Source: Synechococcales cyanobacterium VAR_4_metabat_354 (GTDB lineage Bacteria; Cyanobacteriota; Cyanobacteriia; Cyanobacteriales; Chamaesiphonaceae). Taken from it: a DNA stretch of 64,000 nt. Position 1 is the stretch's first letter; each line of letters starts with the position of its first letter. A program made the position numbers. Of this stretch, positions 30,001 to 36,000 are shown in pieces. The stretch lies in contig JANOQI010000057.1 in assembly GCA_031414775.1 (NCBI GenBank), forward strand, positions 37,709-101,708. Direction: 5' to 3'.

Positions 30001-33000
30001 AGGAAATTTTGATGGCGTGGTCACGGCGCCGATCGCCAAGTCGGCCTGGGCAGCAGCGGGTCATTACTATCCCGGTCAGACGGAGTTGCTAGCCGAAATG
30101 GCCGGTGTAGATAAATCTGGAATGATGTTTGTGGGACGGTCGCCCCATACCGGCTGGCAGTTGCGGATGTTGTTGGCGACGACGCATATTCCGTTGAGGG
30201 CAGTGTCCGACAGGTTAACACCGCAATTACTCAGTGATAAGTTGGCATTACTAATTCATTGTCTACAAGATGATTTTGGCATTGCTCAACCCCAAATTAA
30301 TGTGGCCGGTTTGAATCCACATAGCGGCGAACAAGGTCAGATCGGGCGCGAAGAAGTAGATTGGTTGCAAGATTGGTTACGCTCGGAGCAGCAACGCTAT
30401 CCGCAAGTGAAATTAGTGGGTTTATTGTCGCCAGATACCATGTGGGTAGCGCCAGGTCAGGCTTGGTTTGGCACTGGGCAACAGGCGGTAGCTGATGGCT
30501 ATTTGGCGCTATATCACGATCAGGGGCTAATTCCAGTGAAGTTGATGGCGTTCGATCGAGCGGTGAACACCACGATCGGGTTGCCGTTTGTAAGAACTTC
30601 TCCCGATCATGGAACGGCTTTTGATATTGCCGGTCAGAATAAAGCGGATGCGACGAGTATGCGAGAGGCTATTTTGCTGGCGATAGAATTGGTCAATAAA
30701 CGAAGATCAGGATCTTAAGGAACAGTAGTGTTGTAATAGCCAACACGGATAACAATCGGTCCAGTCAGATTGTAATTGCCACTATTGGCGATCGCTGACC
30801 AGACATCTACCCTTGTAACCGTTTCTGCCCAAGCCTTCCGAGTAGATCGATCGTGGGAACGAGATAGATGTGTCCGTCGTATTTGCAAAAAGGCAGTTAA
30901 CCAAGCTTTTTCATCTACACCCGTGCGGGGTGTTCCACCCATGCGCTCCTGCGTCTCCCTTAAAAGAACGGATAAAGAGTCTGGGTCATTTCCATTGCCA
31001 TGTTGAATTATCGTATCGTATAAAGCCGAGCGAGATAGAGCAAACTGCAATCCTTGGGCTGTGGCGTGAACCATTGCTGGTAAATAATACATTTGATTCA
31101 TATTCCGATCTTGAATCGATCGAAACATGGGATCTTGAGCAGCATTTTGCCAAGCGGTCATAAATCCGTCTAGCCCGCTAACATCATCTCTATTATCAGC
31201 TGTAAGTAAGCGCTCCAACTCCGCTAAATACTTAGCCAAGGAATTCTGCGGAACTTTCTCGGTATATTGTTTCACCACAATATAGGCATCTCCAGTGCCA
31301 GTGGTAAAACCAGCCCGTCCAGCAGTAATCCCCCGCCCGTCACGCAAAACTTCAGCATAGCCATATTGAAACTCTAAAGTGTTATTTTCAAACAAACTAA
31401 TTAGTTGTTCAGCTCGCAGTTTTTGCTGGGGAGAAAATCTGGTATTGTCAACAGCTTTCGTCTGATGGGTAGATGCCTGACGATTTTTAGGAATAGTAGG
31501 TGTGGAGGATAATAGTATCCATAGGATAAGTATGGTGGCGCTCAAAATTAGTAATAACGGCATCCTGTTGGTTAAATATTCAATTAAGTATTTAGATTGA
31601 TTACTTTTGTACAATTCTCTCCTGAGTTAAAATTACGGCAATTAGCTGGCAATCATAGCAAGGTGATAGATTCAAATACCTGATTCGCCTCTTCCCCGAT
31701 ATTCTTGACGCTAGCGGTACGTTCTAGTTTATTCCAGCCCATCATCCGACCTTGAATGGCGGCTAACACGGCTTTAATCGCTACAAAATACATCAGTTGG
31801 CGATAGAAAAAACGCTGGGGAAATAGCCAGATTAGCTGGCTCCAATCTTCTTTAGTCGGTTCCAAAGCAAAGGCGATGCCAGCAGCCAGATAGTCAACAG
31901 CTACAAACAACAGATAGTAGCCCAATAAATGGAATAACACCTCTGGTGAAAATTGGTCGGGATGCTGCTGTTTTTGCCAAATGCTCCACCCTAACGATAG
32001 CAACATAAATAGATCCATCAGCGGTGAAACCAAAGATAAAACAACTTGAAATATCAGGATATTTGGCAAGGTAATCATGCCCATTGCTTTATAGCGGGGG
32101 CGCAAGATGGCATGGCGGTGTTTCCAAATAGCTTGAAAAGTTCCAAACATCCAACGAAACCGCTGTTTTAATAAGCTGTTGATATTTTCTGGTGCTTCTG
32201 TATAGGAAATAGCTGACTCTTCAGAGCGAATTTTATAACCCATGCTCAAGAGAGTTAGGGTCAAGTCAGCATCTTCCGCGAGAGTATCGTGGGCAAACAA
32301 TCCAGCTGCTAGCAGGTATTCTCTCCGCCAAGCACCGATTGCCCCAGGTACTACTCCGATTCCATTCAGAACACTCATTGCCCGTCGTTCTAGATTTTGG
32401 CTGGTTATATATTCTAGGGACTGCCAGTAGGTTAGTAGATTTACCCGATTACCCACCTTCACGTTACCAGCAACAGCGGCTACTTGATGGTCGGAAAAGT
32501 GACGAATGAGCTTCCGGATCGCACTCGGTTCTAAGATGGTGTCGGCATCGATCGTGAGAATTATTTCAGCATTAGATTGTAAAATGCCATAGTTAATAGC
32601 TGTTGATTTGCCCCCATTTTCCTTACTCAGAATATGTACTCGTTGATGATTTCCAAACTCTTGTACCACTTGGTAGTGGGTCAGGTCAGTCGAACCATCA
32701 TCAACGACGATCACCTCTACGTTAGGATAGTCCGAATTAAGCAAAGAATGGATCGTACGACAAATCACCTTGTCTTCATTAAAGGCCGCCACCACTACAG
32801 TCACTAATGGTTGGTATTCATCAGACTTAGAGGTGTGTTTGCGGTGGTGATGAGGTTGATAAAGTGCTAATCCTCCAATAAAGATTAACCGCAGAACACT
32901 AAACCAAATCCCCACGATGAACAAATAATAAATTGCTGAACCCAAGTAACTAAATATCTGAAAAACGATCAAATTAGAGGAAGCCAGCAGAATATCGCGC

Positions 33001-36000
33001 TCTGAAACAAGGGGCATGACTGCATCCCGATCTAATCCAAGAAGATTAGATACTGTCACTAATTCAAAACCCTGATCGCGTAATCCTTGGATGATTTTTG
33101 GCAGAGCAGCAACGGTTTGAGATCTGTCGCCACCGCTATCGTGTAGCAAGACAATATTGCCCTGATGATCGATCGCCTGCTTAATGGTGGCTGCCATCAG
33201 TTTATCTGCCCCGAAATTACGCCAATCTTGGGGGTCAATCTTTAGCCCTACCGTATAATAACCAAGCTGGCCAGTTGCCTCGACTGGGACAATTTGCTCC
33301 ACTGTATCCGGTTCCATATCTTCGGCATAAGGCGGACGAAATAGCAGCACTTTTCGTCCTAAATGACTTTCTAACAAACGCTCGGTGGCATTGAGTTCAA
33401 AGTGCAATTGCTCTTTAGAAACTTTAGAAATATTGGGGTGAGTGAAGGTATGAGAACCAATTTCATGACCTTCATCGACAATCCGATGTAGTAAATCAGG
33501 ATGCTGTTTGGCATTCATTCCCACCACGAAAAAGGTGGAAGGGGCGTGATATTGATTCAAAATATCCAGTATCCGACCAGTGTACTCAGCACTGGGGCCA
33601 TCATCAAAAGTTAGGGCAATTTTTTTGCTGTTCTCACCGCCCCAGCGTTGGATTGTGTAGGGAGAAGGATAGGAATAAAACTTTTGATCGATAATCAAAC
33701 CAGATTGTTGATTGTAAACAATTTTTCTTTTGCCATCAGTCGGTGGAGCGGTCACCTTCAGAACTTCTCCAGTACCTTTATACTCAATGCCATATCCAAC
33801 ATTCACAGTTTCTAGAGATTTAGCTACCGATCGATCTAACTTACTCCGCCGATCAAAGACCTGCCAAATGGAGGGATCCTCTGCGCCCAATCGCCACATA
33901 GCAAATCCTCGCACACCATGTTTCTGAGCAGTGACAACTTGGTTAAATCCAGTCACAGCGTCCAATAAATAAACTTGATGATGTTCTTTTTGCTCATCAT
34001 CATAATCAAAGGTTTGATTGAGAGAAGTCGGATCTAGCTTAATCTCTTGGCTAAATTTACGCGCAAGCTGAGTCGCATCTTGAAAAGTAACAGTAGACAT
34101 GTTTTTACCATGCCAATCGGAACCATAGCTGCCGATCGCTATCACATATTTATCGGCGGGTAAGTCGATTAACCGATGCTCTAAATGTTGAGTGTACCAA
34201 CTCTGAGCAGCAAGCGGTCCAGCTAGTTGGTCAGTGACATGTTGGTCATAAGCTATCAAGATCAAATAGTCGTTAAATTGAGCCAGAGTACGATAATCTA
34301 TGATGGGATCATTTAAAGGTAAACTTTGGGACACTTCCAATCCCAGAGGAGAAAAGCGATCGTGCAATTCCCGCATATAGACTACCAAGTCTGGATAATT
34401 AGCTGATGCCAAATTCTGAAAGTCAATACTAATACCCGCAAAGTGATTGCTTTGAACAAATCTTAGTAAGTTTTGGATATTCCGTTGACGGGCTTCAGGA
34501 CTAGCTAGCATGGCACCGAGCTTTTCTAGTTGCCAACTTTGAGTGGAGCGATCAAAATTATTAATTAAGGGGACAATTTTTAGATCAGGACGATGCTGGC
34601 GGGTATAGGCCAATACTTGCTCTTGCTTGTGGCGATCATCGATCGAGATCGTGCCATCGGCTTGCTCTAGGTGTAGCCATTCTGGAATAAGTTTATCGAT
34701 CTGGGAAACATGCTGCTGGAGGGAGGAGAAACTATGATCATCCCAATTGACGAAAAATCCAATGATCTCTGATTTATTGGCAACGGCTGTGGACATTTTG
34801 GCAGCGGCAGCTATTAATTCATTGGTTTTTGAGTCTGGAAGCAAGTCATTTTGATTAAATTTGGGATGCCCATCCCGATGAGCCGAAGATAAGCTATCTC
34901 TTTTTGTCCCTAAAGACAGACTAGGGAGGTGGGGATTATGGAAAACACTAAAAATTAAAATACTTAAAAAAGTGATGATTCCAATACTAATAAATATCGT
35001 CATTCGCCGAAAAATAGCACTACGTTTTTGCTCTGGATCGTAAAAAGTAGGATGAGTTGTAAAACGAGTCATAAGTTGCCGAGTATTACGGTTTTTACTA
35101 GGTCAGAATATAAAAATAGATAACTCAAAATTTCAGCATTTTGACCGAAACACATTGTTCATCTCTTGCCGGGTAGATGTTTCACACTGCAAATCAGTAA
35201 TGCTAATTATTGATGTTATTTAGAAAAAAATATTTATCGGCATTCCTATTTTGAGAAAATCAAAATAGCGAAATATATAGGTGTCTATAGCTATAGAGAT
35301 ACTGCTCACCAAAATTGAGATATATCCGTCGCATAATGCCATGTTGCACGACAATTTAAAAATCATGTTATAGGCAAAATGCTTAAAAAACTTGTCTCTA
35401 ATTAAGCCTTTTGCCGATTCCATCTAGTCAATCAGCAGACCCAAAGATATAGTCGATAAAAAGCTACTGTTCGGCGTATTGAGCACTCTATATTTACTAA
35501 TTAGCCTGGGCAAAAAACCACCTACAAATGAAAAGAAATAAATTGAATTTACTTGCAACTATTGTGAGTGTCTTGATTATCAATATTTTTGGAATTCAGG
35601 GCGTACAAGCAAACAAAGTGAAATCATTAGTTACTGCTGACTTGCTATCCGACTCTTTGACTAACTTTGCGGATCAGAACAGTCTGAAGACTAAACCAAA
35701 ATCAGCGAGCGAATCACCACAGAATAAGACCAAGCCTGAGTCAATTGTTAAACTAATCAGTGCTGAAGCCTACAACGATCGAGGCAATGAACGCGCTGCC
35801 GCCGGAGATAACCAAGGCGCAATCGCCGATTTTACCGAAGCCATCAAACTTCAACCTAACTATGCCGAAGCCTACAAAAATCGTGGAGGGCTACGATGGA
35901 GCTTGGGAAATAAGCAAGGCGCACTGGCCGATTTCAACCAAGTAATTCAACTCAATCCCAAACCAGAAGCTGACGATTACAAAAGTCGCGGGAATTTACA

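Follow-up and report, generated by a model that had tools for sequence, protein, structure and literature searches.

Several described systems combine a GT2 synthase with a CE4 deacetylase. NodC and NodB, which act on beta-1,4 GlcNAc chains, are cytoplasmic proteins that yield short oligomers. In Streptomyces, the polymer made by MatAB is reported as beta-1,6 PNAG that reacts with mAb F598 and is attacked by dispersin B but not by chitinase (PMC5972031). Fusions of CE4 and glycosyltransferase domains were noted earlier in a survey that placed them under pga-like operons without pgaA and pgaD (PMC7112194), and a 'chitin/chitosan-like' polymer of Citrobacter, described as sensitive to both chitinase and chitosanase, requires a pgaABCD-like operon (PMC6414854). 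The bacterial chitin synthases (CHS) described as transferred are of the division-1 eukaryotic type and have different neighbours (PMC5122149).

The locus considered here lies within a 64-kb window, this being the whole stretch of DNA analysed, and all coordinates are positions in that window (Table 1). It encodes a fused polysaccharide synthase, a GH46 chitosanase and an outer-membrane porin, by which a bacterium may make a slime resembling chitosan, the linkage of the polymer being putative. An initial annotation had called such a route not known in bacteria, wording that needs care given the earlier CE4-glycosyltransferase fusions and the Citrobacter polymer.

Table 1. Features of the island and its borders
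Feature	Position	Strand	Basis
pdxA, left border	29669..30718	+	Pfam PdxA
GH46 chitosanase gene, 299 aa from TTG	30715..31614	-	Pfam PF01374 Glyco_hydro_46 2.2e-62, 210.9 bits
Fused protein, 1139 aa, ATG start: TM1, GH18, CE4, TM, GT2, C-terminal TM bundle	31653..35072	-	ORF, Pfam, NCBIfam, hydrophobicity
C-terminal transmembrane region, residues 986-1110	31743..32117	-	Hydrophobic segments 996-1029, 1045-1072; TIGR03937 match to residue 1107
GT2 catalytic domain, residues 755-977, cytoplasmic side	32142..32810	-	Pfam Glyco_tranf_2_3 9e-35
CE4 (NodB-homology) deacetylase, residues 481-680, periplasmic side	33033..33632	-	Pfam Polysacc_deac_1 (481-587) 6.7e-35, 120.2 bits
GH18, residues 103-396, periplasmic side	33885..34766	-	Pfam Glyco_hydro_18 3.1e-17, 63.7 bits
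CAG codon, Gln219, catalytic-Glu position of GH18	34416-34418	-	Translation, family alignment
AT-rich divergent intergenic region, synthase/porin, G+C 0.338	35073..35527	.	Composition
Outer-membrane protein, 613 aa: signal peptide, ~5 TPR repeats, OprB/SomB-type beta-barrel	35528..37369	+	Pfam, NCBIfam
tRNA-Arg(TCT), right border	37388..37461	-	ARAGORN

A low-G+C island between pdxA and tRNA-Arg

The two-gene picture given initially, of synthase and chitosanase, was incomplete, having missed both the island structure and a third gene, the divergently oriented TPR and OprB porin. Together the three genes form a low-G+C unit of 6.7 kb (approximately 30715-37385), and the island between pdxA and tRNA-Arg is horizontally acquired. 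Blastn synteny with genus mates extends over 26551-30700, breaks at the 3' end of pdxA and picks up again at approximately 37377, and in two genus mates (G483 and G536) pdxA directly abuts a 77-78-nt stretch that is 100% identical to tRNA-Arg(TCT). The G+C of the island, 0.428, is the lowest among all 6.67-kb windows of the 64 kb, and the lower G+C previously remarked upon for the synthase and GH46 genes was borne out (0.432 for each, against a window median of 0.462 and 0.508 in pdxA). The intergenic region between synthase and porin presumably carries the promoters of both genes; a promoter scan of this region gave no signal exceeding chance.

The synthase was present in one of nine other members of the genus (G575), in two of 400 other genomes in a sample of the order and in one of 400 in a sample of the phylum, the last in keeping with its reported rarity. 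The trio is found again within a small cyanobacterial clade and its genes are co-inherited. GH46, synthase and porin are all present in G575, the same longest contig (10660 bp) is reported for synthase P0004, GH46 P0124 and porin P0249, and longest contigs are likewise shared by P0003 and P0125 (7622 bp) and by GH46 P0133 and porin P0244 (13688 bp). A full-length porin ortholog was absent from all five of five genus mates without the synthase. The porin matches Pfam TPR_1 (124.6 bits) and OprB (49.7 bits) and NCBIfam por_somb (172.7 bits), with the PgaA model TIGR03939 reaching 22.8 bits, over the TPR part only, against a cut-off of 366. Just 13 porin homologs with similar coverage turned up, each spanning at least 87% of the query; two of them carry the same longest-contig figure as synthase or GH46 homologs, and a blastp search of 80 distant loci returned no TPR-porin beside the synthase.

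Domains of the fused synthase and its chitosanase neighbour

The fusion described initially, with one N-terminal helix, GH18, CE4 and a membrane GT2, was confirmed by ORF, Pfam and topology analyses, as was the occurrence of GH18, CE4 and GT2 together in 119 of the best 120 homologs listed. The single N-terminal hydrophobic helix (residues 18-47) has K/R on its N side, and both GH18 and CE4 sit between it and the next membrane segment, i.e. outside the cytoplasm in the topology predicted from hydrophobicity. The translation contains the motifs SIDFQ, DDGS, IDADT, AEDAD and QRFRW, and the designation of the protein as a self-contained synthase/deacetylase is supported.

Within GT2, DDGS, DAD, AED and QRFRW are invariant across 23 sequences, and the C-terminal transmembrane region is the presumed translocation channel. 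The view that this domain scores as a chitin synthase proved weak. Chitin_synth_2 (PF03142) matches residues 829-916 only, or 90 of 527 profile positions (4.7e-10, 39.2 bits), and solved chitin synthases match more weakly (6e-7) than hyaluronan synthases (1e-12). The top GT2 model is TIGR03937 (PgaC_IcaA), which covers the whole GT2 and transmembrane part (model positions 17-392 of 407) at 182.5 bits, far below its equivalog cut-off of 422.3, compared with 101.3 bits for the NodC model (cut-off 550). In the GT2 tree, the GH18-CE4-GT2 clade is sister to a clade of actinobacterial CE4-GT2 proteins (99/98), taken as MatB-like by architecture, with the two cleanly apart (98/96 and 100/100). PgaC/IcaA fall outside this combined clade, no nearer than NodC, which occupies a long separate branch.

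The CE4 domain is of the NodB/PgdA type rather than the PgaB type, scoring 170 bits on PdaB, 142 on NodB and 138 on PgdA but 16 on PgaB, with no match to the IcaB model in the NCBIfam search. Its TFDDGP, HTFTH, RPPY, DPxDW and LLHD columns show little or no variation.

The fold of the GH18 domain was confirmed with an AF2 model (pLDDT 93.1), which Foldseek places closest to chitinase 5jh8 (TM 0.86), followed by SleL and class V chitinases; by sequence, SleL, YaaH and YdhD, all spore-cortex enzymes, are among the closest relatives of the domain. The reported SIDFQ in place of the catalytic Glu was confirmed, and since a contig from run X4, a run of the same study that is not marked as the source, spans 33236-35534 with no differences, CAG codon included, the Gln codon is not a single-run assembly slip. 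However, among 183 family members the catalytic-Glu column holds E in 178, Q in four and a gap in one, the Asp of D-x-E is kept in 179, and a genus mate with an approximately 90% identical synthase has SIDYE. A dead GH18 that holds the chain, as first proposed, therefore cannot be the general mechanism, and the Glu-to-Gln change is not a feature of the system but appears private to the window ortholog. In its own clade the GH18 is not decaying, with a GH18/GT2 identity ratio of 0.90 compared with 0.84 in other pairs.

Downstream on the same strand, the GH46 assignment was upheld: the protein matches the solved chitosanase of PDB entry 7c6c at E 5e-76, both catalytic columns are kept (Glu in FEN, Asp in DGRG), and Paenibacillus chitosanases are 50-54% identical to it. 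The previously given gap of 89 bp holds from an internal ATG at 31563, whereas the TTG start leaves 38 bp. A hydrophobic helix at residues 13-41 suggests that the protein is secreted or membrane-anchored. In G575 the GH46 ortholog begins 4 bp past the synthase stop. The adjacency raised in the initial annotation was also checked in distant homologs: divergent GH46 genes (29-38% identical to the window GH46) lie approximately 17-50 bp from the synthase in three of 80 distant loci, all three alphaproteobacterial. Across 50 synthase-bearing genomes, six contain GH46 (eight matches, three of which adjoin the synthase), compared with no synthase within 1.5 kb of any of 18 GH46 loci from 400 other Alphaproteobacteria. 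This recurrence in distant lineages supports a predicted functional tie between GH46 and the fused synthase, with GH46 as an accessory rather than a core component, as it is missing from 44 of the 50 genomes and most loci are partnerless. The Nostocales homolog P0018 carries an N-terminal GH75 chitosanase domain (44.2 bits) as part of the fusion, and no GH20 or GH153/GHL13 was seen among the 223 neighbour ORFs scanned; the ica locus used for comparison has a GH20 neighbour.

Candidate product and alternative readings

The island is interpreted, with somewhat more confidence than doubt, as a synthase-dependent exopolysaccharide machine whose product would be a GlcNAc polymer that has lost part of its N-acetyl groups and most likely has beta-1,4 linkages (chitin turned into a chitosan-like polycation). 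No other single reading fits as well as a product of the chitosan type, and the self-contained chitosan synthase of the initial annotation survives in its fused synthase/deacetylase and GH46 tie, without the GH18 lectin step or the chitin-synthase score. In the proposed route, for which substrate, linkage, every catalytic activity and export are predictions, the cytoplasmic GT2 would polymerise UDP-GlcNAc and thread the chain through its own C-terminal channel, a step suggested by the D, DxD, AED and QRFRW motifs and by homology to PgaC, MatB, NodC and hyaluronan synthase. The periplasmic CE4, tethered in the same polypeptide and with all its motifs intact, would strip some of the N-acetyl groups. 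In nearly all relatives, a GH18 with D-x-E may trim or release acetylated stretches, a role played elsewhere by BcsZ or the PgaB hydrolase domain, while that of the window ortholog, with Gln219, probably only binds the chain. GH46 would cut deacetylated (GlcN) stretches, and the TPR-beta-barrel would move the polymer over the outer membrane in a PgaA- or BcsC-like manner.

A doubtful though possible alternative is a compact PNAG system, in which GT2 makes beta-1,6-GlcNAc like PgaC, IcaA and MatB, CE4 yields dPNAG, GH18 stands in for the GH153 of PgaB, the TPR-porin is a PgaA analogue, and GH46 either has an undescribed action on dPNAG or is otherwise employed. Among relatives studied by experiment, the nearest speaks for beta-1,6, as the MatB-like group is the sister clade and MatAB is reported as a PNAG maker; the top GT2 model is PgaC_IcaA over nearly its full length, although far below cut-off and with PgaC/IcaA themselves outside the clade. 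The combination of TPR-porin, deacetylase, hydrolase and GT2 is exactly the logic of pgaABC in the pga locus compared, although the CE4 belongs to neither the PgaB nor the IcaB type and an ORF scan of the three-gene island gave no small PgaD/IcaD-type candidate. The survey of fusions in pga-like operons and the Citrobacter polymer, in which enzyme sensitivity and PNAG-type genes have already been reported together, also count towards PNAG. GH18 enzymes are known for activity on beta-1,4 GlcNAc substrates, and no GH18, GH46 or GH75 enzyme is known to act on anything but beta-1,4 GlcNAc/GlcN. All hydrolases physically linked to the synthase belong to these three families, with neither GH20 nor GH153 among the scanned neighbours, and the chitosan-type reading is further favoured by the conserved GH18 fold and D-x-E, the NodB/PgdA-type CE4, the kept catalytic residues of the window GH46, and the recurrence of GH46 beside the synthase elsewhere. 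Counted against it are the scarcity of GH46 across synthase genomes and of TPR-porins at distant loci.

It is very unlikely that the locus instead makes no secreted slime, producing short NodC/NodB-like chito-oligosaccharide signals or remodelling its own wall with GH46 as an unrelated passenger (e.g. a means of using fungal chitosan as food or of defence against it): the NodB and NodC scores, the spore-cortex relatives of GH18 and the few genomes with GH46 fit this, but NodB acts inside the cell while CE4 and GH18 here are predicted to be extracytoplasmic, NodC branches far away, the GH46 adjacency is far from chance, and the trio, export-type TPR-barrel included, moves and is passed on together.

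Comparison with known systems

MatB of Streptomyces (SCO2962; CE4-TM-GT2, acting with MatA) shares an extracytoplasmic CE4 fused to a membrane GT2 synthase, and the actinobacterial CE4-GT2 proteins match synthase residues ~441/482-1124 at 35-38% identity. However, MatB is without GH18, the MatAB product is the PNAG reported (PMC5972031), and no GH46, GH75 or TPR-porin partner was seen in the actinobacterial loci scanned. PgaABCD/IcaADBC are alike in the GT2 synthase with its full-length TIGR03937 match, in a CE4 joined to a glycoside hydrolase and in a TPR and beta-barrel exporter, but here a single inner-membrane polypeptide carries all enzymatic modules, GH18 takes the place of GH153 as the hydrolase, the CE4 is of another type, the barrel belongs to the OprB family, PgaD/IcaD is missing and the GT2 score is below cut-off. 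NodC/NodB likewise pair GT2 with CE4, and the CE4 here scores well on the NodB model, but they are separate proteins in the locus compared and the NodC score falls far short. Eukaryote-type chitin synthases share GT2, a QxRRW-type motif and GlcNAc polymers, although the PF03142 match covers a small part of the profile. The GH46 resembles Bacillus/Paenibacillus chitosanases in sequence and catalytic columns, but differs in its N-terminal hydrophobic helix and in its operon-like position behind a polysaccharide synthase rather than in a catabolic setting.

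The fused synthase and the insert that carries it

The hydropathy of the fused synthase (P0001) shows a single N-terminal helix at residues 18-47 with K/R on its N side, followed by a 650-residue extracytoplasmic stretch containing the GH18 and CE4 domains. A hydrophobic segment at 701-738 precedes GT2, after which two more lie at 996-1029 and 1045-1072. This layout places GH18 and CE4 on the periplasmic side of the membrane and GT2 on the cytoplasmic side. In an alignment of 23 diverse homologs, the CE4 motifs TFDDGP, HTFTH, RPPY and LLHD were invariant, as were residues D490, D491, H541, H545, R579, P580, P581, Y582, D616 and H644. 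All the metal and catalytic motifs of the CE4 or NodB-homology family, MT1-MT5 (TFDDG, H(S/T)xxH, RPPY, DxxDW and LxH), are present in P0001, whose CE4 domain scored 120.2 bits in Pfam and matched solved CE4 enzymes at an E-value of 2e-37. The GT2 motifs DDGS, DAD, AED and QRFRW were likewise invariant across the 23 homologs, and the D, DxD, (T/A)ED and QxxRW signatures, with transmembrane helices after the GT domain, are those of processive membrane GT2 enzymes of the BcsA, PgaC, NodC, HAS and Chs type. The fused GH18-CE4-GT2 protein with a GH46 gene downstream, as described in the initial annotation, is thus borne out by ORFs, Pfam, hydropathy and motif alignment.

Features of the insert and its right flank, in window coordinates
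Feature	Position	Strand	Description
P0002	30715-31614	-	GH46 chitosanase, 299 aa, TTG start (ORF reading and Pfam)
P0001	31653-35072	-	fused synthase, 1139 aa (ORF reading); Pfam domains GH18 103-396, CE4 481-587, GT2 755-977
TPR-porin	35528-37369	+	divergent from synthase; signal peptide, five TPR repeats, OprB/SomB-type beta-barrel
tRNA-Arg(TCT)	37388-37461	-	within element 37385-37462
ORF	38271-39179	-	302 aa; weak coiled-coil-type Pfam hits only (OmpH-like 19 bits, below cut-off)

The GH46 protein (P0002) scored 210.9 bits against its profile (cut-off 27) and matched the solved chitosanase 7c6c at an E-value of 5e-76 with the catalytic Glu/Asp pair retained, the aligned Glu column being the one mutated to Ala in entry 7c6d and the Asp of DGRG being conserved. 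The previously described gap of 89 bp to the synthase holds for an internal ATG start, whereas the TTG start leaves 38 bp; the genus-mate ortholog begins 4 bp past the synthase stop. The unit had been described as these two genes, which both stand, but a third gene was overlooked, encoding the divergent TPR-porin with TPR_1 in five stretches and OprB at residues 402-611 (Pfam).

Two genus mates that lack the synthase share synteny with the window as far as the 3' end of pdxA (~30700) and again from ~37377, just beyond the porin gene. In two others, pdxA is directly followed by a 77-78-nt element that matches window 37385-37462 at 100% identity. From these synteny breaks and the pdxA-tRNA junction, the GH46, synthase and TPR-porin genes are one 6.7-kb insert between pdxA and the tRNA gene. 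The 77-78 nt covering tRNA-Arg(TCT) show 100% identity to genus mates in which the surrounding DNA reaches only ~69%, and the tRNA gene marks an insertion hot spot beside pdxA. The G+C content of the island (0.428) is the lowest of same-size windows in the 64 kb (median 0.462). No att-like direct repeats were found at the island ends, and a promoter and terminator scan gave 10 and 3 sites where 15.3 and 5.5 were expected, nothing above chance. In a further two genus mates (G524 and G549) the pdxA and tRNA flanks fall on separate contigs, so something else may sit there. Beyond the tRNA gene, the position of the 302-aa ORF is conserved in the genus mate G575.

The sole synthase-bearing genus mate carries the whole trio, in unchanged order, and a full-length TPR-porin ortholog was found in none of the five genus mates without the synthase. 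For the closest cyanobacterial homologs, synteny was read solely from equal longest-contig figures, with 10660 bp common to synthase P0004 (82% identity), GH46 P0124 (78%) and porin P0249 (76%), 7622 bp common to P0003 and P0125, and 13688 bp common to GH46 P0133 and porin P0244. Besides the window's own, only 13 of the listed proteins matched 87% or more of the porin's length, and the other listed matches covered at most 70%, mostly the TPR part, at 27-42% identity. A biofilm metagenome of another study contained a ~90-95% identical relative spanning parts of all three genes. A metagenome scan for close relatives returned one locus, which was irrelevant.

The GH18 domain

A model of the GH18 domain built by AF2 with 33 sequences (pLDDT 93.1, pTM 0.91) has the (beta/alpha)8 fold of chitinase type, with a Foldseek TM of 0.86 to chitinase 5jh8. 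All of the Foldseek matches listed (ranks 1-49) were GH18 chitinases, SleL/YdhD proteins (SleL being cortex-lytic) or chitinase-like lectins, with no GH20 or GH153 structure among them, and the domain scored 63.7 bits in Pfam against a cut-off of 29.6. Residues of subsite -1, namely Y-D from the MxYD motif and the beta-8 Trp, are present as an AYD stretch with D276 invariant and as W393, also invariant, across the 23 sequences.

At the catalytic site, P0001 reads S-I-D-F-Q where GH18 enzymes have D-x-E, such that the catalytic Glu is replaced by Gln219. Among 183 aligned family members this column holds Glu in 178, Gln in four and a gap in one, while the preceding Asp is retained in 179; the longer motif DxxDxDxE is not conserved in the family at its first two Asp, position 212 being mostly A, S or Q and 215 mostly S, N, C or V. 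The four Gln forms are the window protein, its 82% relative P0004 and two Granulicella loci (L066 and L071), which read TLDFQ and represent an independent change in a lineage distant from the window's clade. Since the ~90% identical genus-mate protein has SIDYE at the same site, the change in the window ortholog is recent, and the Gln219 codon showed no difference in a contig from a further run of the same study. The 'dead GH18 lectin' of the initial annotation accordingly does not describe the family, in which, from its conserved motif, the domain is most likely an active hydrolase. Glu-to-Gln mutants of GH18 enzymes are routinely used for trapping bound chito-oligomers, and two such entries are among the listed Foldseek matches, so that the window ortholog's domain most likely binds without cutting. 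Decay of GH18 in the GH46-linked clade was considered and rejected, the GH18/GT2 identity ratio being 0.90 inside the clade and 0.84 on average for other pairs, as was compensation by GH46 for a dead GH18, given that the three GH46-adjacent alphaproteobacterial loci retain the Glu.

Linkage of the product

A beta-1,4-linked product, as in chitin and chitosan, is given slightly better than an even chance, and the points counted for it include the linked hydrolases. Known synthase-dependent systems come with a hydrolase that is specific to the polymer they make, such as BcsZ, the PgaB C-terminal domain, PelA and AlgL; here the built-in hydrolase is GH18, with its catalytic pair kept family-wide, and the hydrolases recurring beside the synthase gene are chitosanases. 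To our knowledge, GH18, GH46 and GH75 act only on beta-1,4 GlcNAc/GlcN substrates (CAZy). Adjacency of GH46 in distant homologs, a point left over from the initial annotation, was found at three alphaproteobacterial loci, where genes 29-38% identical to P0002 lie ~17-50 bp from the synthase in convergent orientation. Six of 50 synthase-bearing genomes held eight GH46 matches, three of which are these adjacent genes, and none of the 18 GH46 loci from 400 other Alphaproteobacteria had a synthase within 1.5 kb. Enrichment as such is weak (6/50 synthase-bearing genomes against 18/400 others), and it is the adjacency that carries the argument. Most PF01374 hits in the alphaproteobacterial sample (L139-L156) scored only 49-72 bits at ~26% identity to P0002, and from their sequences look like a divergent GH46-like subgroup. 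A Nostocales homolog (P0018) has an N-terminal GH75 chitosanase domain (44.2 bits) in a putative fusion.

The alternative that the product is PNAG, the beta-1,6 polymer of PgaC and IcaA, is rated less likely, and these same hydrolases speak against it, as does the lack of GH20 or GH153 near the synthase in the 223 of 260 immediate neighbours scanned; for comparison, a staphylococcal-type ica locus used for the tree has an adjoining GH20 gene. In its favour, a maximum-likelihood tree of the GT2 and transmembrane part (28 rows) recovered the GH18-bearing family as one clade (98/96) whose sister is an actinobacterial MatB-like CE4-GT2 clade (99/98), and PMC5972031 reports the Streptomyces MatAB product as PNAG, stained by anti-PNAG antibody and removed by dispersin B, not by chitinase. 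However, PgaC/IcaA forms a separate clade, and both it and NodC fall outside the clade of the family and MatB, such that the GT2 is not nested in a PNAG clade; the join of NodC with PgaC/IcaA carried a long-branch warning and was left out of the argument.

Profile scores for the GT2 domain lean towards PNAG, the best NCBIfam model being PgaC_IcaA (TIGR03937) at 182.5 bits over its full length, below its cut-off of 422.3, against 101.3 bits for the NodC equivalog TIGR04242, also below its cut-off (550). The earlier statement that the domain scores as chitin synthase holds in that Chitin_synth_2 exceeds its cut-off (39.2 against 27 bits), but this match covers only profile positions 196-285 (90/527) and the PgaC_IcaA model remains the best of NCBIfam. 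Solved chitin synthases matched P0001 at 6e-7, and a PDB sequence search returned no solved PgaC or NodC for comparison. Deacetylase-GT fusions were filed as pga-like, with the product unconfirmed, in an earlier survey (PMC7112194), which also favours PNAG. The CE4 domain argues the other way, the NodB, PgdA and PdaB models giving 142, 138 and 170 bits and PgaB only 16, with no hit to IcaB. Caution comes from a Citrobacter polymer that is described as 'chitin/chitosan-like' by enzyme sensitivity and yet depends on a pgaABCD-like operon (PMC6414854). Outcomes other than beta-1,4 or PNAG seem improbable.

For the favoured beta-1,4 product, we infer a division of labour from the parts present, their conservation and their co-inheritance. 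GT2 would polymerise UDP-GlcNAc and translocate the chain, and the tethered CE4 would partially deacetylate it at the inner membrane's outer surface. In most family members GH18 would trim or release acetylated stretches, which the Gln219 ortholog of the window would instead hold; GH46, secreted or anchored, would cut deacetylated stretches, and the TPR-barrel protein would export the polymer.

Distribution of the family and comparison with known systems

Relatives are encoded in at least 599 of the 603 matched genomic stretches and fall in at least 10 phyla-level groups, including Acidobacteriota, Gemmatimonadota, Alphaproteobacteria (with cultured Sphingomonas and Stakelama), Bacteroidota, Patescibacteria (including Parcubacteria), Chloroflexota, Bacillota, Deinococcota and Cyanobacteriota, with family genes on plasmids of Deinococcus and Sulfitobacter. 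The synthase is rare around the window, in one of 400 other genomes of a phylum sample, two of 400 of an order sample and one of nine other genus members. Identities of 46-57% across phyla point to horizontal spread, as judged from the sequences. Homologs are nearly always annotated merely as 'glycosyltransferase' or 'polysaccharide deacetylase'. Ultra-small-genome Patescibacteria keep the 3.4-kb gene at ~47-50% identity (L034, from a ~0.9 Mb Parcubacteria genome, P0078, P0098 and P0118), a large investment for such genomes that may bear on host-cell attachment.

Conserved operon partners were sought across the family and rejected, the neighbours not being conserved, and no blastp hit to the TPR-porin was found in the ORFs of 80 loci of distant homologs. 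The fused protein stands alone in most hosts, which makes 'self-contained', as it was initially called, a fair description. Of 74 loci, 26 have a PMT_2/GT-C membrane protein as a neighbour, the commonest one, followed by MprF (6) and GH46 (3). The PMT_2/GT-C protein, of ~490 aa, lies immediately upstream of and divergent from the synthase, mainly in Acidobacteriota (L006, L012, L023, L025, L046, L059, L066-L069 and others), no more than 600 bp away at 24 of these 26 loci, and might modify the polymer or envelope as a glycosyl- or lipid-linked modifier. The MprF-type lysyl-phosphatidylglycerol synthase is adjacent in four of its six loci (which include L010, L015, L020, L029 and L064; Gemmatimonadota and Sphingomonadales), and an enzyme that alters membrane charge, next to what is presumed to be a polycation synthase, could provide self-protection. 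Several hosts have diguanylate cyclase or GGDEF-EAL genes close to the synthase (L135, on a Deinococcus plasmid, L044 and L064), a hint of c-di-GMP control, although the protein has no recognised c-di-GMP-binding domain. Downstream of a 53% identical cyanobacterial homolog in the same order (L103 of genome G451), the gene at 5659-7302(+) is PGA_cap (CapA-like), not GH46.

The chances are evenly balanced that this is the first bacterial chitosan-producing machine, in which one inner-membrane polypeptide makes beta-1,4 chitin, deacetylates it on emergence and carries its own chitinase-type module, to which the island adds a dedicated GH46 and a TPR-porin on a cyanobacterial OprB barrel, the family being widespread and, in soils and sediments, an unrecognised supplier of cationic chitosan-like matrix. 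The literature searched, which lay outside subscription journals, contained no paper on the GH18-CE4-GT2 fusion. If the product is chitosan-like, a single gene would give a biological route to chitosan, the polymers known from bacterial matrices would gain a cationic one, and chitin/chitosan signals in soils and sediments would be attributed differently. A PNAG product would still represent a new packing of PgaB and PgaC functions, together with a GH18 module, in a single protein. The size of the three-gene island would allow its whole transfer into a test host.

Synthase-dependent matrix polymers, among them cellulose, PNAG, alginate and Pel, have a central place in the biology of biofilms, and we know of no beta-1,4 chitin or chitosan member shown in bacteria. 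The system is best filed as a synthase-dependent poly-GlcNAc machine, a notable first if the linkage is beta-1,4. The bacterial chitin synthases of PMC5122149 differ in being eukaryote-type and of another family than P0001. Like PgaA and BcsC, the TPR-porin combines an N-terminal TPR array with a C-terminal outer-membrane beta-barrel, but the barrel is not homologous to theirs, the scores of 22.8 bits on TIGR03939 (cut-off 366.65) and 19.4 on BcsC both falling on the TPR part only; it matches instead the por_somb/OprB family (172.7 bits), so that the same TPR-plus-barrel architecture is here built on a cyanobacterial porin barrel.
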